Assembly (NCBI GenBank): GCA_035309865.1
Contig: DATGER010000126.1
Coordinates: 284-64,283, forward strand
Source: Chloroflexota bacterium
Lineage (GTDB): Bacteria; Chloroflexota; UBA6077; CF-72
Length of the DNA stretch: 64,000 nt
Direction of reading: 5' to 3'
Positions within the stretch are counted from its first letter, which is position 1. Each line of letters begins with the position of its first letter. A model generated the notes under the pieces. The model made no database searches, had not been told where the DNA came from, and worked only from the letters and a program-made list of their open reading frames with translations. Made by a program: the position numbers and the translations under genes. Below are positions 23,540 through 32,664 of the stretch, one piece after another.

Positions 23540-24112
23540 CTACGTCAGCTCCGGGCGGTACCCGGTCGTGGACTCGGCCACCACGTCGCCGTGACGCAGG
23601 TCGAGGGTGTGGATCCAGCGCTGGCCACCACACAGCACGCCCACCAGGAACCCGAGCTCGACGAGCTCCGGCTCTGAGAAGTGCCGCTTCAGTTCGGCCC
23701 ACAGCGCGTCGTCGGCCTGCGTGGGATCCCAGGTGATTGCGTCCGCGTAGCGCAACGCGACTTTCTCGCGCTCGGTAAAAAGCGGCGAGGTCGCATACTC
23801 ACTGATGCGTGCTACTTTGTCCTCGCCGACTGCCTGCTGTCCGGACCGGACAGAGCGTTGGACCGCTCAATACTGACAGTCGAGCGAGGTTGCCACGCGG
23901 AGTCGCAGCAACTCCTTCAGGTCGTGGTCGACGATGCCATGCTTGAAGACCGACTGCCACGTGTACACGAAGCTGCGGATCACGGCCGGCACGTGTGCGC
24001 GGATCAGCTGAATCTCCGGTCGCGGCGTGCCAACTCGCACGGCTTCTTCAATGAAGGCCTGGATGTCCGGGTCGTCGATGGTGTTGGGATCGACGTACGA
24101 GATACGCGCCAT
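23540..24112 (-). CDS. Carboxymuconolactone decarboxylase (CMD)/AhpD-like protein with in-frame TGA at the CxxC position: candidate selenoprotein, or nonsense pseudogene
   Basis: Track ORFs 23867..24202 and 23540..23755 share one frame (327 nt = 109 codons apart), separated only by TGA (plus-strand tca at 23867-23869). ATG at 24112 with AGGAGG 7 nt upstream. Joined 190-codon product: MARISYVDP...LRVATSLDCQY[TGA]AVQRS...TEREKVALRYADAITWDP... Confidence 0.6.
23837..23853 (-). other. Candidate bacterial SECIS-like hairpin downstream of the in-frame UGA
   Basis: mRNA sense CUGUCCG-GUC-CGGACAG: 7-bp perfect stem, or 6 bp with a GGUCC loop. It starts 14 nt after the UGA. The apical loop is about 20 nt from the UGA and begins with G. 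Confidence 0.4.
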
Positions 24113-24137
24113 CAAACCGCCTCCTGCCGCCAGAGAT

Positions 24138-24800
24138 TCATGCCGCCCGCCGGCGGCCAGCCGCCATCTCGAAGCCGCAACGCGGGCGTGCGGCGCGATC
24201 ACAGCACTCGGTGACGGGCGCGCCGACCACCTCGGCGAGCAATGACTCGATCAGTCGGCACACTTCCGGATGCGGTTTCACCGCCGAGGCCAGCGGGCAG
24301 CTGTAGCCGCGCAACCGGACCTTGCCGCTCTGCGCGCCGTCGTCTTCGACCTCGACGATGCTGCCCAGTCCTTCGAGCACTGCGACCGCCCGTTGGAGCC
24401 GATCGCCCGGGCCACGGTCGCGGCGGGCGGGTGCGCCGGCCTCGGCCGCCAGACGTCTGCCCACTTCGCGCAGGAGCGTCTCGATCGCATCCGCGGGCAT
24501 GCGCTCGGCCAGGACATCCAGCACCTGCCCGAGGACCGGCCCGTACGCTTTCGGGAACAGCTGCTCCGCGGCCGGCGTCACGTCGAACACGAACGCGGGC
24601 TTGCCTCCGGAGCGCCGCACGCCGTCCTGTCGCACGAGACCGTCCCGTTCGAGCGAGCTGAGGTGGGTCCGGACCGCGTTGTCGGTGACCCCCAGCGCGG
24701 CGGCCAGTTCCTCGACGGTCCGCGGGGCGCGCCACAGTAAGGCCACCACCTGACCGCGGGTGGTCGCCAGAAATCGCTGATCCCAACCGCCGTTCGCCAT
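24138..24800 (-). CDS. Winged-helix (ArsR-like) transcriptional regulator with Cys-rich C-terminal domain
   Basis: GAGGAGG RBS 4 nt upstream of the ATG at 24800. wHTH region RTVEELAAALGVTDNAVRTHLSSLERDGLV. C-terminal region has 5 Cys (YSCPLA...EVCRLI...TECCDRAARPRCG). Ends 25 nt upstream of the CMD start. Confidence 0.75.
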   Translation of the reverse strand: MANGGWDQRFLATTRGQVVALLWRAPRTVEELAAALGVTDNAVRTHLSSLERDGLVRQDGVRRSGGKPAFVFDVTPAAEQLFPKAYGPVLGQVLDVLAERMPADAIETLLREVGRRLAAEAGAPARRDRGPGDRLQRAVAVLEGLGSIVEVEDDGAQSGKVRLRGYSCPLASAVKPHPEVCRLIESLLAEVVGAPVTECCDRAARPRCGFEMAAGRRRAA

Positions 24801-24920: not shown

Positions 24921-24948
24921 TTGACTTTATTGATTAAATGGGTACGGT
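24921..24948 (+). promoter_or_regulatory. Candidate sigma-70-like promoter in an AT-rich island (TTGACT-N16-TACGGT)
   Basis: This is one of only a few strongly AT-rich stretches I noticed in the window (24898-24940). It lies in the divergent spacer between the regulator start (24800) and the cytochrome c start (24986). Confidence 0.3.
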
Positions 24949-24985
24949 TGAGGACGGGCACACGTCGCCACGAGGGAGCCATCCA

Positions 24986-26365
24986 ATGCGCACACACCGT
25001 TTTTCCTTCGCCGCGTTGGCGTTGACCGGTCTCGGCCTGGTCGCGCTCGGCCTCGTCAGCGCCTCGGCCGCCGCTGACGGAGGCTTTCTGGACGCCCCGC
25101 GCGATCAGGCGCACCCGTTCGACGCGCAGATCCGCGACAATACGCGGCGCCTGATGTCGGAGGGACGGACGACCTTCCGGTCCGACACATTGGGCAGCGA
25201 GAACTTCTTTGGCAACACCATCGGCTTGCACCGGGCCATCGAGGGTGCCGCCTTTGGTGGGGTCGGCGGCGGCGTCAGCCCCCGCACCGCGCTGGCCGTT
25301 GGACTGAAAGTCGACGCCGACGCGCTGCCCAACGAGGTCGTCGCGGCCATCAAAGCCGGTCGGGTCAACCTCGACGATCCTGCCGTGACCCTGACCTTGC
25401 TCAAGCTGGGTGCGGTCGTTGGCGTGACGGGCATCTTCAACAATCCCGAACAGCCGACGCAGGGGCTCAAGGCGGTTGGCATTCAGTGCGCGCTGTGCCA
25501 CTCCACGGTGGACGACTCGTTCGCGCCCGGGATCGGCAAACGCCTCGACGGCTGGCCCAATCAGGACCTCAACGTCGGCGCGATCATCAACCTGGCGCCC
25601 GATCTGTCGGCAGTCGACCACCTCCTGGGCGTCGACGACGCGACCACGCGCAAGGTGCTGCAGAGCTGGGGGCCGGGCAAGTTCGATGCTGAGCTGTTCA
25701 TGGATGGCAAGGCCTTTCGACCTGACGGCGGCGACGCCGCGACGTTGATCCCACCGGCGTTCGGCCTGGCTGGGGTGAACCTGCACACCTACACCGGCTG
25801 GGGCTCGGTGACGTACTGGAATGCGTTCGTCGGCAATCTGGAGATGCACGGCCAGCCAGGCACGTTCTACGACCCTCGCCTCGACAACGCCGATCGCTTC
25901 CCGGTGGCGGCGAAGAACGGGTTCGGGCACCTCAGCTCGCCGCCGGGTGAAGATCGCATCTCACCCAAGCTGCCTGCCCTGCACTTCTACCAGCTCTCGC
26001 TGCCCGCGCCCACGCCGCCACCTGGCACGTTCGATCCGGTCGCCGCGGCGCGCGGCCAGATTGTCTTCGACGGTCAGGGCCAGTGCGCCACCTGCCACGT
26101 GCCGCCGACCTTCACCGAGCCCGGTTGGGACCTGCATACGGCTCAGGAGATGGGCATCGACGACTTCCAGGCGAGCCGCTCGCCGGACGACCGGTATCGC
26201 ACGACCCCGCTCGCGGGCCGGCTGTTTAACCGCACCCGCGGGTTCTATCATGATGGCCGTTTCGCGACGTTGTTCGACGTCGTGAACCACTACGACAGCC
26301 AGCGCAAGTTGGGGCTGAGCGAGCCGCAGAAGCAGGATCTGGTGGAGTATCTGAAGTCGCTCTGA
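24986..26365 (+). CDS. Secreted di-heme cytochrome c, cytochrome-c-peroxidase/MauG-like C-terminal half
   Basis: ATG at 24986 with a GAGGGAG RBS and a signal peptide. Two CxxCH motifs (CALCHS, CATCHV). C-terminal TTPLAGR...YHDGRFATLFDVVNHY resembles the CCP family. Confidence 0.75.
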   Translation: MRTHRFSFAALALTGLGLVALGLVSASAAADGGFLDAPRDQAHPFDAQIRDNTRRLMSEGRTTFRSDTLGSENFFGNTIGLHRAIEGAAFGGVGGGVSPRTALAVGLKVDADALPNEVVAAIKAGRVNLDDPAVTLTLLKLGAVVGVTGIFNNPEQPTQGLKAVGIQCALCHSTVDDSFAPGIGKRLDGWPNQDLNVGAIINLAPDLSAVDHLLGVDDATTRKVLQSWGPGKFDAELFMDGKAFRPDGGDAATLIPPAFGLAGVNLHTYTGWGSVTYWNAFVGNLEMHGQPGTFYDPRLDNADRFPVAAKNGFGHLSSPPGEDRISPKLPALHFYQLSLPAPTPPPGTFDPVAAARGQIVFDGQGQCATCHVPPTFTEPGWDLHTAQEMGIDDFQASRSPDDRYRTTPLAGRLFNRTRGFYHDGRFATLFDVVNHYDSQRKLGLSEPQKQDLVEYLKSL

Positions 26366-26396: not shown

Positions 26397-26918
26397 CTAC
26401 GCGCGGTTGGCCAACGCATGGCGGGTCCGCTGGCCAACCCAGGCGACCAGCGCCAGCATCCCGCCGAGCGCAATCACGTCCGCCGGGCTGTGATTGCGGA
26501 CCAGGCCAATGCTGCCGATGACCGTGGCCAGGACCAGGAGCACCAGCGCCAGCGTGCGATACAGGCGCGTGATCTCCGAGCGTGGCCACTCGTCGAGCGT
26601 GCGCTCCAACTCGCGGCCGGTGTCCGAGTCAGTGCACTCGGGTTTTTTCGGGCACCGGTTGCAGGCAGCCGCCCGGGCGCGGTAGCGGGCTGTCTGGTGG
26701 CCGTCATTGGCCACTCCGACCAGCAGCAGGTGCTCCCCCGTGGGACACTCCCAGGCATCGAGCGCCGCATGGTATCGGAAGCCGGCCGTCTCGAAGCGTT
26801 GCGAGCGGCCGTGGGCGATGCGGGCCAGTTGCTCCAGACCTAACGCGACCACCACCAGGATGACGATGTACCCGGCTCCGAGTACGGCCTCCAGGTGGAC
26901 GTCTTCCAGCCGCGGCAC
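26397..26918 (-). CDS. Small 3-TM membrane protein with a 4-Cys module, translationally coupled to qNOR
   Basis: GTG at 26918 shares one nucleotide with the norB TAG (TAGTG). Hydrophobic segments AVLGAGYIVILVVVALGL, LALVLLVLATVIGSIGLV and VIALGGMLALVAWV. Cys module WECPTGEHL...CNRCPKKPECT. High GC3. Start uncertain. Confidence 0.45.
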   Translation of the reverse strand: MPRLEDVHLEAVLGAGYIVILVVVALGLEQLARIAHGRSQRFETAGFRYHAALDAWECPTGEHLLLVGVANDGHQTARYRARAAACNRCPKKPECTDSDTGRELERTLDEWPRSEITRLYRTLALVLLVLATVIGSIGLVRNHSPADVIALGGMLALVAWVGQRTRHALANRA

Positions 26919-29212
26919 TAGTGGGCACCAGCCGGCTCGGTGACTTCCGTAAACAGGGGGTGCTCCGGTTCTTCGAGCGTGACCGGTCCAGTCCGATAGC
27001 GGACGCCGAGCCAGCAAATATACAGCAGCGGCAGCACGCCACCCACAATCATCAGCACGTCACCTGGAAAGCGCAGCCACTCGATCAATGCGTTCGTCGA
27101 GTTGGTGAGATAGTGGAGCGACCGGGCTTCGAAATACCCGTGACTGACCGACTCATACAACTGCAGGATGCCGAGCGGGAAGAGTGTCGCGAAACACATC
27201 CAGGCCAGTCCAACGTTGAGTGACCAGAAGCTGATCGCCGCCAGTCGGTCGGACCAGCGCTCCTGGGGAATCAGGTAGCGCACGCAAAACAGCGCCAGGC
27301 CAGCCGCGAGCATGCCGTACACGCCCATCATCGCCGCGTGGGCGTGATTGGCGGTCAGTGCCGTTCCGATCTCGTAATACGACACGATGGGCAGGTTGAC
27401 CAGGAAGCCGAAAATGCCGGCGCCCAGGAAGTTCCAGAACCCGACCGATGCCAGAAACATCACCGCCCAGCGGTGCGGGAATGGCGTGCCCAACTTGTCG
27501 GTTTGCGCCGCCCCGAGCTGGAGGAAGCTCCACGCCTCGACAGTCAGAAAGGTCAACGGAATGACTTCGCCGGCCGAAAAGAACGCGCCGAGCGCCATGT
27601 GCTGGGCGGGCGTGCCCGAGAAATACAGGTGATGCATCGTCCCGATCACGCCGCCGGCCGAGTAGAGCACGATGTCCAGGTAGACCACCGTCAGGGCCAC
27701 CCGCTCGGCCACGACGCCGAGCAGGACGAAGATGTACGCCACCATGATGGTGGTAAACAACTCGAGGAAGTCCTCGACCCACAGGTGAACCACCCAGAAA
27801 CGCCAGAAGTCCGTCGTCGTGAAGTTGTCCTGGGGTTGGGCCAGCAAGCCGACCGCGTAGAACGCGGGCAGGGCGAGCGCGGCGAAAAAGAACAGCCAGG
27901 GTAGGTTGCCCAGGTGCTCGCGCCGCAGCCGCCCGCGAATGCCGCGGTAGATCATGCCCACCCACACGAACAGTCCCAGAGTTAGCAACACCTGCCAGAA
28001 GCGCCCCAGGTCCAGATATTCAAAGCCTTGATCGCCGAACCAGGCCCAGAGTGGTGTATCCCAGCCAAAGATGCCGGCCCACTCGCCGAGCATGCTGCCG
28101 ACGACCACAAGTACCAGGGCGCCGAGCAGCCCGGACGCCAGCCAGTGTTGGCGGGGCGGCTCACGACCCGCGATCATGGGCGCCAGGAAGATGCCCGCCG
28201 CCAGGAAGGCGGTCGCCACCCAGAAGATCGACAACTGTACGTGCCAGGTGCGCGTCAAGTTGTACGGGAACCAGCGTGCCAGGTCGATGCCAAAAAAACC
28301 GGACAGATCGGCTCGATAGTGCTGGGATGCAGCGCCGAGCAGCGTCTGGACCAGGAAGAGGGCGGCCATGACCAGGAAGAAGAACCCCGTCGTGCGCTGG
28401 GCCGGCGTCAGCGCGACCTCGCCGGGCGGGATGAACCTCAATCGCTGTCGCTCGCGGCCGCGCCAGCCGAGCACGTCCCAGCGCCCGAACGCGCCGAACA
28501 GCAGGCCGATGCCGCCCAGCAACGCGATCAGCGACAACACGCTCCAGACGAGACTGTCGGCCGTTGGCGCGTTGCCGACCAGGGGTTCGGGGGGCCAGTT
28601 GTTGGTATACGAGTACGACTCGCCCGGCCGCTGGGCCGCCGACGCCCACGCCGACCAGGTGAAGAACGAGGTGAGTTGTCGCACCTGCTCCGGGTCGGCG
28701 ATGGCCGCCGGCCGCAGGCCATTTTCGGTCGTGGGGTTAGCGAAGAAGTCCTGGTACTGGGTGCGCAAGACCTGAAAAGCGTGCACCTGCCCGGCCGAGA
28801 ACGCGAGCGTGCGGGTGGGCGCGGCGTAGCGGTTGGTCTTGAAGTCCGCGAGCGTACGGGCGCGCGCCTGGTCGGATGCTGGTCCGCCGTACTGCTCCAG
28901 CACGTCGAGAGCGGCGCGCCGCAGCGCGTCGGCGGTGTAGTCAGGCCCAAGATAGGCGCCGTGGCCGAAGATCGAGCCGTACTCCATGAGCCCGTTGCGC
29001 AGGAAAATCTCCTGGCCGCCGACAATGTCGGCGCCAGTGAAGAGCGTGGCTCCGCTGGGATCGACGACTCGGTCCGGGACAGGTGGTGCCCCATCGTTCG
29101 CGCCATACGCGAGCATGCCCATAACGGCGAAACCAAAGAGCATGACCAGCAGCGAGGCCTGGATCCAGGTCCGCGAGACAATCAGCGCGCGCCTGGTCGA
29201 TCCACTCACCAT
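26918..29212 (-). CDS. norB: Quinol-dependent nitric oxide reductase (qNOR), large single-subunit type
   Basis: About 764 aa with an N-terminal NorC-like extension plus a 12-TM heme-copper oxidase core (GTMHHLYFSG, ANHAHAAMMGVYG). ATG at 29212 with AGGAGG (29221-29226) 8 nt upstream. Confidence 0.9.
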   Translation of the reverse strand: MVSGSTRRALIVSRTWIQASLLVMLFGFAVMGMLAYGANDGAPPVPDRVVDPSGATLFTGADIVGGQEIFLRNGLMEYGSIFGHGAYLGPDYTADALRRAALDVLEQYGGPASDQARARTLADFKTNRYAAPTRTLAFSAGQVHAFQVLRTQYQDFFANPTTENGLRPAAIADPEQVRQLTSFFTWSAWASAAQRPGESYSYTNNWPPEPLVGNAPTADSLVWSVLSLIALLGGIGLLFGAFGRWDVLGWRGRERQRLRFIPPGEVALTPAQRTTGFFFLVMAALFLVQTLLGAASQHYRADLSGFFGIDLARWFPYNLTRTWHVQLSIFWVATAFLAAGIFLAPMIAGREPPRQHWLASGLLGALVLVVVGSMLGEWAGIFGWDTPLWAWFGDQGFEYLDLGRFWQVLLTLGLFVWVGMIYRGIRGRLRREHLGNLPWLFFFAALALPAFYAVGLLAQPQDNFTTTDFWRFWVVHLWVEDFLELFTTIMVAYIFVLLGVVAERVALTVVYLDIVLYSAGGVIGTMHHLYFSGTPAQHMALGAFFSAGEVIPLTFLTVEAWSFLQLGAAQTDKLGTPFPHRWAVMFLASVGFWNFLGAGIFGFLVNLPIVSYYEIGTALTANHAHAAMMGVYGMLAAGLALFCVRYLIPQERWSDRLAAISFWSLNVGLAWMCFATLFPLGILQLYESVSHGYFEARSLHYLTNSTNALIEWLRFPGDVLMIVGGVLPLLYICWLGVRYRTGPVTLEEPEHPLFTEVTEPAGAH

Positions 29213-29224
29213 GCGTTCCACCTC

Positions 29225-30931
29225 CTACTGAACTGAGCGTGCCAGGGCGTGCGCCCGGAGGGCGGCTTGCGTTCGGCTGGTCACCCCGAGCTTCGACAGC
29301 ACATGCTTGACATGGAGTCGCACCGTGCCGACGCTCAGTTGCAGGTCACGGGCGATGTCCAGGTTGGTTTTGCCTTCGCCCAGCAACCCGAGCACTTCGC
29401 GTTCACGCGGCGTCAGCGCGTCGATCTGTCCGTCGCCCGCGGTCGACCCGCGGGGGTCATGCGGCCGCAGCAGGTGCGCGATCAAGTCCTCGAGCCGTCG
29501 TTCGCGTTCGGCCAGCGCACCGTGGAGATAGTGATTCTGGCGCACGGTCGAAGCGAGGTCGCCGGCCAGGCGGCGTTCCCGCGTCACGTCGGTGACAACG
29601 ACCACCGCTCCGGCGATCGCGTCGGCGGGATCGCGCAGCGGCACCGCCGATGCTTGTAACCAGTACAGACTGGCGGAGCCCGCGGGTCGGAACGTCGCCT
29701 CGTACGCGTGGATTTCTTCACCGGCCAGGACGCGCCTCAGGAGGCTGCCGATGGGCACGCGCCGCTCTCCGCCGGCTTCGCGTAAGTCCAGGTCGGTCGC
29801 CTGCTCGGCGATGGGGCGCGAGCGCTCCAGTTGACGCCCCAGAATCCGCCGGCAGGCGCTGTTGACCAGCAGTGGATGTCCCTTCGGATCCAGCACCAGG
29901 ACACCGCTGGGCAGTTGTTCGACCACCGCCGCCAGGCGTTGCTCCTCTTGATCCAACTCCCAGGCCTCGCGAGCACTGGTCACGCCAATTGCCATGCCGC
30001 TGGCCAGTCCGCTCAACAGTTGCTCCTCCTCGAGGTCGAACCGGCGATCCCTTTCACCCAACACCTCGAGCACACCCAGCGAAACTCCGTTTCGTCGGAT
30101 CGGGGCGGCGAGGTAGGCAAACCGCACCTGACGCTCGGCCTGGCTGAGCCGGGCGACCGGTTCCATCGAGGCATCCGGCAGGTTGACCAGCTCGACGGAC
30201 GCGACGTGCACCAGACGATCGTTCACCGGAGCGACCCGCCCATCAGGCAGGCGGCGATAGCCGACCCCCGCGGCGTAGCGTACCGACTCGTCAGCTTTGA
30301 GCAGCCAGACCGCCGCGCTCTGGGCGCGCAGTGCGCGCATCGCCAGTTTGACGGCCAGATCCTCGACGCCCTCCTCGTCATGCGCGGCGCGCACATCGCG
30401 GCACAAGAACTCCGACATGGCCGCCATCAAGCGCGACTGACGCTCGACCTGGCGCGCCAACTCCAGCACCTCCAGGGCAGCCCCGAACGGAGTACCGATC
30501 AGTGCGACCAGCTCCAGCAGCCGCGCGGTATCGGCATGCGCGCGCGCCCACCCGACGCAGACCGTCGCCACGACGCGATCGCCGACCCAGAGCGGCACCG
30601 CCCCGGCGCTTTGCACGCCGTCCGCATCAGAGCCAGTGGCTTGACCGATCGATTGTCCGCGCCGCCACGCCAGCTCGCACAGGCGGAGCGCAGATGGCAA
30701 TCCTGGTCGCGGCTCCCAGGCGTCCGCCCGAGCCGCATACACGACCCGCATGCCGAAGTCCGTCGCTGGTACGCACACCACGACAGCCGCGGCGCCAAGC
30801 AGCGCGATGAGCTGTTCGGCGACGATTCGGGCGCCAGTCTCAGCGTCGCGCGCACTCGCGACCAGCGCGTTCGTCTCAGGCAACGCCCGAAGGAGTCGCT
30901 CAGCGCCGGGCAGCGTCCAGGCGTCGCGCAC
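29225..30931 (-). CDS. GAF-GAF-PAS-LuxR(HTH) transcriptional regulator
   Basis: GTG start. C-terminal LTPREREVLGLLGEGKTNLDIARDLQLSVGTVRLHVKHVLSKLG. N-terminal GAF-like and PAS-like regions (LPSGVLVLDPKGHPLLVNSA). Its stop (29225-29227) overlaps the norB Shine-Dalgarno. Confidence 0.85.
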   Translation of the reverse strand: MRDAWTLPGAERLLRALPETNALVASARDAETGARIVAEQLIALLGAAAVVVCVPATDFGMRVVYAARADAWEPRPGLPSALRLCELAWRRGQSIGQATGSDADGVQSAGAVPLWVGDRVVATVCVGWARAHADTARLLELVALIGTPFGAALEVLELARQVERQSRLMAAMSEFLCRDVRAAHDEEGVEDLAVKLAMRALRAQSAAVWLLKADESVRYAAGVGYRRLPDGRVAPVNDRLVHVASVELVNLPDASMEPVARLSQAERQVRFAYLAAPIRRNGVSLGVLEVLGERDRRFDLEEEQLLSGLASGMAIGVTSAREAWELDQEEQRLAAVVEQLPSGVLVLDPKGHPLLVNSACRRILGRQLERSRPIAEQATDLDLREAGGERRVPIGSLLRRVLAGEEIHAYEATFRPAGSASLYWLQASAVPLRDPADAIAGAVVVVTDVTRERRLAGDLASTVRQNHYLHGALAERERRLEDLIAHLLRPHDPRGSTAGDGQIDALTPREREVLGLLGEGKTNLDIARDLQLSVGTVRLHVKHVLSKLGVTSRTQAALRAHALARSVQ

Positions 30932-31443: not shown

Positions 31444-32664
31444 TTGGCCAACCAGCGTCAGAACCGGCTAACGAGCCGCGAGGCTTGCCTGCGCGAGATC
31501 GTGGCGGCGCTGGCTGGCTCACTCGACGAGACAGCGACCCTGGAGATCGCCGTGCGTTCGGCCGCGCGGCTGCTCGATGCCCCGTTTGCCCGAATCTGGT
31601 TGCTGGACGAGAACGGTGACCTGAGAACCTCCACGTCCTACGTCGGCGCAGCCTTCACGCCCGGTCGCACGACGCACCTGTCGATCGACAGCGTCGCGGG
31701 TCTGGCACTTCGGTCCGGGCGCGGCGTGATGCTGGCCGACGCCTCGAGGCACACGCTGTGGCGCGATGTCGATTTCACCGCCCACAGTGGACTGCGCGCC
31801 TATCTCGGCGCGCCGGTTCGCCGCGCGGGGGCGAAGTTGGGGGTTCTGGAAGTCATGCGACCACTGAGCGTCGGCTTTGCGTCGGCCGACCGGTCGCTCC
31901 TGCTCGACCTCGCCAATGTGGTGGCGGTGGCCGTCGATCAGGCGCGGACGCTCGCTGCGCTGCGGCAGCGCGAGCGCGAGTTCGCCACCCTGGTCGAGTG
32001 CGCGCCCGAGGTGATCGCCCGTATCGACCGCCAGGCGCGGTTCGTGTACGTGAACCCGGCCGCTGAGCGGGTCGCCGGCCTGGCGGCTGAGCGAGTGCTC
32101 GGCAAGACGCTGGCGGAACTGGGGGCCGCGCCGCACGCCGCGACGGCCTGGGCGATCTGCGTGCGGCAGGTCTTCGAGACCGGGCGCGAGGTCACCGCGG
32201 ACTTTCCGATTCCGATGGCCAGCGAGGAGCGCAGTTTGCAGGCCCGCATCGCGCCTGAGCTCGCAGCTGACAGCTCGATCGAGCATGTGCTGTGCATCGC
32301 ACGCGACGCACCCGACCGCGGGCGTGTCGAAGGCGCGCACGAGGACCTGGTTCGGGAGTTGCTCGACCAGCAGCGGCGGCTCGAGCGGTTGACCGAGCGG
32401 GTGCTACTCCTCCGCGGCGAGAGCGCCGCACGCGTGCCCGCGCGGATCCTGCCCGCGTTGACAGGGCGCGAGCTGGAAGTGCTGCAGTTGCTCGTGCGTG
32501 GGATGTCCAACCCTGAAATCGGGCGCGAGCTCAACCTCAGCACGGCGACGATCAAGAGCCACATGAGCACGTTGTTGGCGAAACTTCAGGCCGGCGATCG
32601 CACCCAGGCCGCGGTGCGCGCGGTTTCCCTGGGATTGGCGAGCGCGGTTCCTTACACCATCTGA
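31444..32664 (+). CDS. GAF-PAS-LuxR(HTH) transcriptional regulator (shorter paralogue-like)
   Basis: TTG start with GAGG 5 nt upstream. C-terminal LTGRELEVLQLLVRGMSNPEIGRELNLSTATIKSHMSTLLAKL. Confidence 0.85.
   Translation: MANQRQNRLTSREACLREIVAALAGSLDETATLEIAVRSAARLLDAPFARIWLLDENGDLRTSTSYVGAAFTPGRTTHLSIDSVAGLALRSGRGVMLADASRHTLWRDVDFTAHSGLRAYLGAPVRRAGAKLGVLEVMRPLSVGFASADRSLLLDLANVVAVAVDQARTLAALRQREREFATLVECAPEVIARIDRQARFVYVNPAAERVAGLAAERVLGKTLAELGAAPHAATAWAICVRQVFETGREVTADFPIPMASEERSLQARIAPELAADSSIEHVLCIARDAPDRGRVEGAHEDLVRELLDQQRRLERLTERVLLLRGESAARVPARILPALTGRELEVLQLLVRGMSNPEIGRELNLSTATIKSHMSTLLAKLQAGDRTQAAVRAVSLGLASAVPYTI

Follow-up and report, generated by a model that had tools for sequence, protein, structure and literature searches.

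A predicted selenocysteine-containing AhpD-like redox gene recorded as two open reading frames in a Chloroflexota bacterium

The split gene and its surroundings

The window, i.e., the whole 64-kb stretch of Chloroflexota DNA that was analyzed, contains two minus-strand open reading frames, 23867..24202 and 23540..23755, that lie in one frame and are separated by a single TGA. Read through from the ATG at 24112, from which the TGA is counted as codon 82, the joined product reads ...LRLRVATSLDCQY[TGA]AVQRSVRSGQQ... (Table 1). The orthologs are colinear with this 190-codon gene along its full length, and because all full-length orthologs begin with MARISYVD, the ATG at 24112 is the correct start. 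The two ORFs are one intact gene in which the TGA is the only interruption. An earlier note on this DNA, made from the sequence alone, had described the same layout, namely two ORFs in one frame, a start at this ATG with AGGAGG 7 nt upstream, no further disruption of the frame and a codon bias that stays high on both sides of the TGA, and each of these points was borne out: the start is the one that the orthologs share, the TGA is the sole interruption of the 190 codons, and GC3 amounts to 0.80 before the TGA and 0.75 after it. The gene calls recorded for the ENA assembly of the same DNA (ERZ27279678, contig k141_781027) give an 81-aa and a 71-aa ORF instead of one gene.

Table 1 Features of the AhpD-like locus, in window coordinates
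Feature	Position	Strand	Remark
AhpD-like/CMD-family thiol-selenol oxidoreductase gene (C79-Q-Y-U82), predicted	23540..24112	-	190 codons, TAG stop 23540-23542
In-frame UGA, codon 82, predicted to be read as selenocysteine	23867..23869	-	Column of the second Cys in CxxC
Putative SECIS-type stem-loop CUGUCCG-GUC-CGGACAG	23837..23853	-	RNAalifold helix; pairing and compensatory changes
Shine-Dalgarno AGGAGG	24120..24125	-	Direct sequence reading; 7-nt spacer to ATG 24112-24110
ArsR-family (HTH_5) regulator, Cys-rich C-terminal half	24138..24800	-	Pfam HTH_5, E 2e-8

Immediately upstream lies the gene for an ArsR-family regulator, whose end is 25 nt from the AhpD-like ATG, and the two genes may be co-transcribed. 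The FTHFS gene, whose product is 100% identical to HLZ28656.1 from a Chloroflexota MAG (on a contig of 64,641 bp), is convergent with the AhpD-like gene. Farther away are genes for a heme-motif protein without a Pfam match, an MCP, two GAF-PAS-LuxR regulators and a nitric-oxide reductase of the qNOR type. Only one other locus (L016) repeats the ArsR adjacency, and among the fetched loci there is no neighbor common to the whole clade; the context therefore says little about function, and any functional link between the ArsR and AhpD-like genes is weak. The remainder of the window carries ordinary metabolic, transport and signaling genes, and Pfam scans of its 30 larger ORFs detected neither other selenoprotein families nor selenium-related genes.

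TGA is the ordinary stop codon of the neighboring ArsR, LuxR-type and MCP genes, and there are no internal TGAs in seven Pfam-validated genes. A genome-wide reassignment of TGA is ruled out, since TGA terminates these three validated neighbors. A GC3 screen for other in-frame TGAs in the window proved too unspecific at 67% GC, its candidates being mostly adjacent same-frame genes or antisense frames, and was discarded.

Comparative evidence on the TGA and the downstream hairpin

A protein search for relatives returned full-length Cys homologs and many fragments of ~105-115 aa starting just past the TGA column, together with an N-terminal fragment whose last residues are ...LDCAY and two proteins from JGI that show W in the TGA column. 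The corresponding DNA was examined at five loci from GTDB genomes, all MAGs (labeled Chloroflexota, Alphaproteobacteria [a 3.9-kb contig], Bacillota, Gaiellaceae and Nitriliruptoraceae), and at 25 loci from metagenomes, soil metagenomes included. Of the distinct related sequences extending over the motif, 25 of 25 have TGA in the second-Cys column (TGC or TGT in 0 of 25), and these relatives span 49-92% protein identity. Both JGI "W" proteins (L036, L037) have TGA in the DNA, as does a further ortholog (L039), and the more distant homologs L033, L034 and L035 have TGC at the same column. To the question left by the earlier note, whether orthologs would carry TGA with a hairpin or Cys codons, the answer is TGA with a hairpin in the 25 distinct sequences and in the two W proteins.

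Compared with 12 orthologs, dN/dS is 0.04-0.30 upstream of the TGA and 0.06-0.35 downstream (pS 0.33-0.70). From the downstream values it follows that this half is translated in frame and under selection; both halves of the gene are under purifying selection. In one relative, L002, a further TGA replaces Cys79, and the gene looks freshly damaged. We considered its resulting U-x-x-U as a functional variant and rejected it, as L002 differs from L015 by 5 nt, of which four are non-synonymous and one weakens the hairpin.

The stem of the hairpin (23853-23837) starts 13 nt past the UGA and its first loop base lies 20 nt from the UGA, in agreement with the perfect hairpin, with its loop about 20 nt from the UGA, that the earlier note had drawn. 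Folding of the 63-nt segment that follows the UGA, taken by itself, gave a structure that is not significant (z = -0.70, with 53 of 200 shuffles equally stable). The hairpin by itself is unremarkable because the sequence is 67% GC and shuffles fold as well, and its significance comes from the comparative data only. On an alignment of 23 distinct sequences, RNAalifold predicted a single helix, which is this hairpin. Its paired cells amount to 91.9%, compared with 19-50% in controls in which the partners were slid by 1-3 columns, and changes on both sides occur in three of the seven pairs; the observed pairing was matched by none of 500 shuffles and the covariation score by one of 500. Compensatory changes are seen, e.g., in the stems CUGUUCG/CGAACAG of L003 and CUGCUCG/CGAGCAG of L005, and the closing G-C pair becomes A-U in L008, L009, L012 and L020 through an Arg-to-Gln replacement combined with a synonymous Ser change. 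In L025, an unrelated stem (UCGACC...GGUCGA) occupies the same place. The common core is a 6-bp stem with an optional seventh, closing pair and a loop in which the G and the U are nearly invariant. Because the hairpin lies inside the conserved coding sequence S-V-R-S-G-Q-Q, protein constraint could explain part of its conservation, and the covariation events are modest in number. A lower stem (alignment columns 22-25 with 45-48) was also considered and dismissed, with 69.6% pairing, zero compensatory changes and shuffles that score as well.

The published bSECIS model describes a loop of 3-9 nt, a stem of 4-16 bp, a G in the first two loop positions, a spacing of 16-37 nt and an energy of at most -7.5 kcal/mol (PMC13188914). 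The window hairpin agrees with this model on every count (loop GUC, 7-bp stem, 20-nt spacing, -12.8 kcal/mol), and the comparison with bacterial SECIS elements for which the earlier note had called came out in its favor. In each of the 25 distinct TGA sequences the loop measures 3-7 nt, its first or second base is G, and the spacing is 18-20 nt; the hairpin energies range from -7.0 to -15.7 kcal/mol, L022 (-7.0 kcal/mol) being the only sequence that falls short of the energy threshold. An equivalent stem is absent from the three TGC homologs examined (L033-L035). Like the bSECIS of the E. coli fdhF type, the hairpin is a stem-loop within the gene, a short distance 3' of the UGA, with a G followed by a U in its small apical loop; it differs in having an unrelated stem sequence and no conserved bulge or lower stem, and its binding by SelB is putative.

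Family, fold and catalytic motif

The joined 190-aa product matches the Pfam CMD domain PF02627 over residues 43-124 with 29.8 bits (gathering score 23), which upholds its earlier description as a CMD/AhpD-like protein. The best NCBIfam match is NF053654 ("GroundWater_YciW, YciW-related (seleno)protein"; E 1.4e-26), in which residues 1-157 align with model positions 1-156 of 179 at 93.4 bits versus an equivalog cutoff of 310. NF053654 is likewise a YciW/AhpD-like family that includes selenoproteins and has a C-x-x-U motif, but by score it is a sister family. The match to TIGR01926 is below threshold (30.2 bits versus a cutoff of 81.8). JGI labels the relatives "alkylhydroperoxidase family enzyme". 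Sequence matches in the PDB are AhpD-like proteins (2gmy, PA0269) and the CMD-family debrominase Bmp8, whose C-x-x-C aligns with C-Q-Y-[TGA].

The alignment places the TGA column at the second Cys of the CxxC motif, both in the Cys homologs and in the structures 2gmy and 6ohi, as the earlier note had expected. E67, C79, Y81 and C82 are invariant in 44 full-length Cys homologs, and the spacing E67-X11-C79-X-Y81-U82, with codon 82 written as predicted selenocysteine, is identical to that of Glu36/Cys48/Tyr50/Cys51 in PA0269. The proton relay of AhpD-like proteins is Glu-X11-Cys-X-Tyr/His-Cys-X3-His, and its His (His55 in PA0269, His137 in MtAhpD) has been termed invariant and essential (PMC3141380). 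At this position, four residues after the second Cys, the window protein has Arg86 instead of His; Q85 hardly varies across the Sec and Cys forms of the clade, and the consensus at the relay position is R86. The earlier note had taken CxxC followed by ..QRS as the motif of the whole family, which holds for this clade but not for canonical AhpD-like proteins, where the motif is CxxC-X3-His (PMC3141380). The Arg-for-His change argues against assuming the textbook AhpC-recycling role. In a Pfam scan of the 30 larger ORFs of the window, no AhpC/peroxiredoxin domain was found.

The closest full-length Cys homolog, P0001, is 62% identical and has a predicted structure with a pLDDT of 92.1. As a proxy for the window protein, this model matches 2prr, 2oyo, 6k40, 3c1l and 2gmy with TM scores of 0.59-0.73 (fold-match probability 1.00), which points to an AhpD-like fold spanning the gene product. 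Judged from the P0001 model, the all-helical AhpD-like fold would be shared with M. tuberculosis AhpD, PA0269 (2o4d/2ijc), Atu0492 (2gmy), 2prr, 2oyo and 6k40 (TM scores of 0.57-0.73 for this wider set). MtAhpD and PA0269 differ in having Cys133 and Cys51, respectively, at the site of the predicted Sec, and the relay His where the window protein has Arg86. The tetrabromopyrrole debrominase Bmp8 (6ohi/6ohj) is the second-best PDB sequence match (E 2e-9), with a TM score of 0.67 to the P0001 model and a C-x-Y-C motif that aligns with C-Q-Y-U; identity is only 17-18%, however, and the locus has no halogenation context. The likeness to Bmp8 is no more than a hint that members of the family carry out chemistry other than AhpC recycling.

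Selenoproteins of this general kind are well documented. AhpD-like (COG2128/YciW, TIGR01926) and "CMD-like" or "AhpD-like 2" (PF02627) CxxU selenoproteins have been described from the Sargasso Sea, from GOS and in reviews (PMC1088965, PMC2398784, PMC9312934, PMC13188914). The Sargasso Sea data yielded 27 AhpD-like (COG2128, CxxU) sequences in a report of 2005, and in GOS the AhpD-like 1 (299 sequences) and AhpD-like 2/PF02627 (70 sequences) groups are among the most abundant selenoprotein families; AhpD-like selenoproteins are also listed in BSepDB and in current reviews. The statement in the earlier note that AhpD-like/CMD proteins are among the families with Sec/Cys pairs was thus correct (PMC1088965, PMC2398784, PMC13188914). 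With these known families the window gene shares the superfamily, the predicted Sec in second position of C-x-x-U, a downstream hairpin with a G in the loop, and widespread Cys homologs. It differs in the origin of its clade, soil Chloroflexota and Actinomycetota as opposed to marine plankton, and in having Gln-Arg at the relay His.

Reading of codon 82 and its significance

Taken together, the comparative data indicate that UGA-82 is very probably decoded as selenocysteine in one intact AhpD-like (CMD superfamily, COG2128/YciW-type) redox gene. By the established bacterial mechanism, a ribosome arriving at the UGA of codon 82 would meet the stem-loop that starts 13 nt downstream, which, with the G-U in its small apical loop, would act as a bacterial SECIS and recruit SelB·GTP·Sec-tRNA(Sec), so that selenocysteine would be inserted and termination avoided. 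The catalytic pair would then consist of Cys79 and selenocysteine 82 (C-Q-Y-U). Judging from the family, the protein may cycle between a selenol/thiol and a selenenylsulfide form, thereby reducing a peroxide, a sulfenate or a partner protein. In M. tuberculosis AhpD, it is the second Cys (Cys133) that attacks the partner. With Sec at the equivalent site the attacking nucleophile would gain in reactivity, and resolution of the selenenylsulfide would fall to Cys79.

Searches for the Sec machinery covered the window and the fetched loci. tRNA-Sec was found neither in the 64-kb window (ARAGORN and Rfam) nor in L001-L005 (ARAGORN), and tblastn with E. coli SelA, SelB and SelD found no selA, selB or selD in the window or in any fetched locus, a result that says little about the whole genome. 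On the same 272-kb contig as the ortholog P0116, and 7 kb from it, lies a PrdB-family gene split by an in-frame TGA (...TPG-U-PMC...), to which TIGR04483 matches across the TGA with 206 bits. A second selenoprotein, of a classical kind, is therefore encoded by at least one host of the AhpD-like gene. Chloroflexi are known to decode Sec and to possess tRNA-Sec, and tRNA-Sec of the 8/4 type is recorded for Chloroflexi and Actinobacteria (PMC1794560, PMC5389517). Dehalococcoidia are listed among the selenoprotein-richest bacteria. On the Sec reading of codon 82, selABCD would be present in the source genome.

The alternative raised in the earlier note was a recent nonsense mutation, leaving a pseudogene whose hairpin arose by chance in GC-rich DNA. 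The non-significant fold of the single sequence (z = -0.70) speaks for it, the recorded gene calls do treat the locus as two small ORFs, and the relative L002, with its extra TGA at Cys79 and four of its five differences from L015 non-synonymous, does have the appearance of a freshly damaged gene. A recent mutation, however, does not account for a TGA whose codon is shared by all 25 distinct relatives, down to 49% identity and in several phyla, for the low dN/dS downstream of the TGA at synonymous sites near saturation, or for the compensatory changes in the stem; these observations exclude the alternative for practical purposes. Just as little credence can be given to the UGA as a true stop, with the locus encoding two small proteins, an N-terminal one of 81 aa and one of ~106 aa restarted at a GTG two codons on. 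A GTG or ATG does often stand two codons past the TGA and is used by gene callers (P0004, P0063, P0080, P0093), but the restart codon is not conserved (the called starts are VQRS, MQRS, VGED, MAED, VVAE and MDED), it has no ribosome-binding site, and the intervening stretch is the sequence flanking the putative SECIS. A stop at codon 82 would also leave E67...C79-x-Y81-U82 without its second catalytic residue, whereas the modeled Cys homolog P0001 is a single domain across the break and the full-length Cys homologs are single chains.

Recoding of the UGA as something other than Sec has a small probability, slightly above that of the two preceding explanations. The residue could be Cys, delivered by a selC* tRNA-Cys together with a SelB paralog, or Trp or Cys, inserted by near-cognate read-through helped by the hairpin. 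A selC* tRNA-Cys(UCA) with a dedicated SelB* does exist in nature (PMC5389517), the searches of the window and the fetched loci found no Sec machinery, and the tree of the family mixes Sec with Cys forms. Yet the reports of selC* come from Firmicutes, Thermodesulfobacteria, Nitrospirae and Proteobacteria, with none from Chloroflexi, and a full Sec system accompanies it in every case (PMC5389517). If Cys were the residue inserted, TGC would be the simpler solution, and a TGA with a hairpin would not be expected under selection in every recovered sequence of the Sec group; moreover, the classical PrdB-like (UxxC) selenoprotein gene is found in a genome that has an ortholog. Selenocysteine is therefore the reading that we retain for codon 82.

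A rough neighbor-joining tree without bootstraps groups most Sec forms in one clade, with the Cys form P0001 nested within it and the Sec forms L005 and L036 placed among Cys clades. This suggests repeated switching between Sec and Cys, a behavior already described for bacterial selenoproteins (PMC1794560). Of the recovered forms of the soil branch, all except one keep Sec. The locus is a mis-called addition to a selenoprotein family known since 2005, and its subfamily is distinct: it scores below the TIGR01926 and NF053654 cutoffs, comes from soil Chloroflexota and Actinomycetota, and has an Arg in the relay. Because AhpD-like CxxU selenoproteins are an established and abundant family, the locus is new in instance, not in kind. 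A bolder proposal, which we regard as speculative and on balance doubtful, is that the Sec forms constitute a separate AhpD-like subfamily without a curated model, in which nearly all members retain Sec and Arg replaces the relay His (signature C-x-Y-U-x-x-Q-R). Its gene and SECIS may have been transferred as a unit among soil-dwelling Chloroflexota, Actinomycetota and Bacillota, the hairpin changing hardly at all. If it were true, the SECIS would be readable by the SelB of different phyla, and the chemistry would be unlike AhpC recycling, e.g., a Bmp8-like reductive reaction or, given the nearby qNOR, a defense against nitrosative stress.

Our understanding of Sec decoding or of AhpD-like enzymes is left unchanged by this locus, and a specialist would find the result correct but unsurprising. 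Its importance lies mainly in annotation. The gene is recorded as two "hypothetical" fragments, and the database entries of many relatives are C-terminal halves or have a W at the Sec site. Recognition of the clade would correct dozens of entries from soil metagenomes and mark the hosts of the clade, this Chloroflexota MAG included, as selenium users. A selenoprotein family known chiefly from the sea would also gain a soil branch whose catalytic relay contains an unusual Arg.

Neighbourhood of the selenoprotein gene

Directly upstream of the selenoprotein gene, the ArsR-family regulator carries a Cys-rich C-terminal extension of ~150 aa (CPL...C...CC...C) and might control that gene by sensing redox state or metal(loid)s, but the pairing was found elsewhere in only one of the fetched loci (L016). 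The 475-aa protein contains the haem-binding motifs CALCH and CATCH, gave no match in Pfam, and adjoins a qNOR-type nitric-oxide reductase in which a NorB cytochrome-c-like domain is fused to COX1; together with the two GAF-PAS-LuxR regulators, these genes look like a nitric-oxide response cluster. On the opposite strand, the 177-aa ORF is "conserved" across several loci, and we rejected it as a gene, regarding it as the shadow of the true selenoprotein gene in GC-rich DNA. In other loci (L002, L015, L017, L018), a cupin ORF lies 3' of the gene, and in one database entry (P0119, 228 aa) an orthologue's C-terminal half runs on into a downstream cupin domain (PF07883). The cupin may be a sub-clade-specific partner or, alternatively, a gene-call fusion.

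Features in the window and in the fetched loci
Feature	Location	Strand	Remark
ArsR-family regulator	window 24138-24800	minus	directly upstream of selenoprotein gene
Antisense ORF, 177 aa	window 23681-24214	plus	opposite selenoprotein gene
475-aa protein, two CxxCH haem-binding motifs	window 24938-26365	plus	
qNOR-type nitric-oxide reductase	window 26918-29221	minus	
GAF-PAS-LuxR regulators, two paralogues	window 29225-30931 and 31444-32664		
TGA at codons 79 and 82	L002 709-720		MAG contig; D-TGA-T-Y-TGA
Cys (TGC) form	L033 82-672		protein P0001
Sec column given as W in JGI record	L036 887-1438		protein P0005
Sec column given as W in JGI record	L037 263-862		protein P0002
PrdB/GrdB-family gene, TGA-split	L039 2164-3324; also L040 958-2115	minus (L039)	TIGR04483 PrdB match

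Departures from the Cys-Sec pair

In L002, both Cys columns are TGA, a pattern that, taken at face value, would specify a U-x-x-U enzyme. The locus differs from L015 at only 5 of 591 nt. Four of the five changes are non-synonymous, and one of these four, R89W, makes the hairpin weaker; recent inactivation of this copy or errors in the consensus are the more likely explanation. Of the Cys forms, P0001 alone falls within the group of Sec forms in the NJ tree, and its former hairpin region, CUGUGCAGGAGGGCGAGCAG, keeps the stem only in part. This remnant is perhaps a relic SECIS that has outlasted a change from Sec to Cys.

Probable selenoprotein genes obscured by gene calls

The PrdB/GrdB-family gene of L039 has an orthologue of the window's selenoprotein gene 7 kb away and is itself interrupted by an in-frame TGA (...VVLTPG-TGA-PMCHQ, motif U-x-x-C) that the TIGR04483 PrdB profile spans with 206 bits; a candidate hairpin, CAGUCC-GUG-GGACUG, is located 12 nt 3' of the TGA. 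This looks like a second selenoprotein, which gene calls enter as two genes. In the JGI protein records P0005 and P0002, W stands at the Sec column where the underlying DNA has TGA; on these contigs, the gene caller apparently took TGA as a sense codon. Here the selenoprotein is masked by W at its Sec column, a route other than gene splitting.
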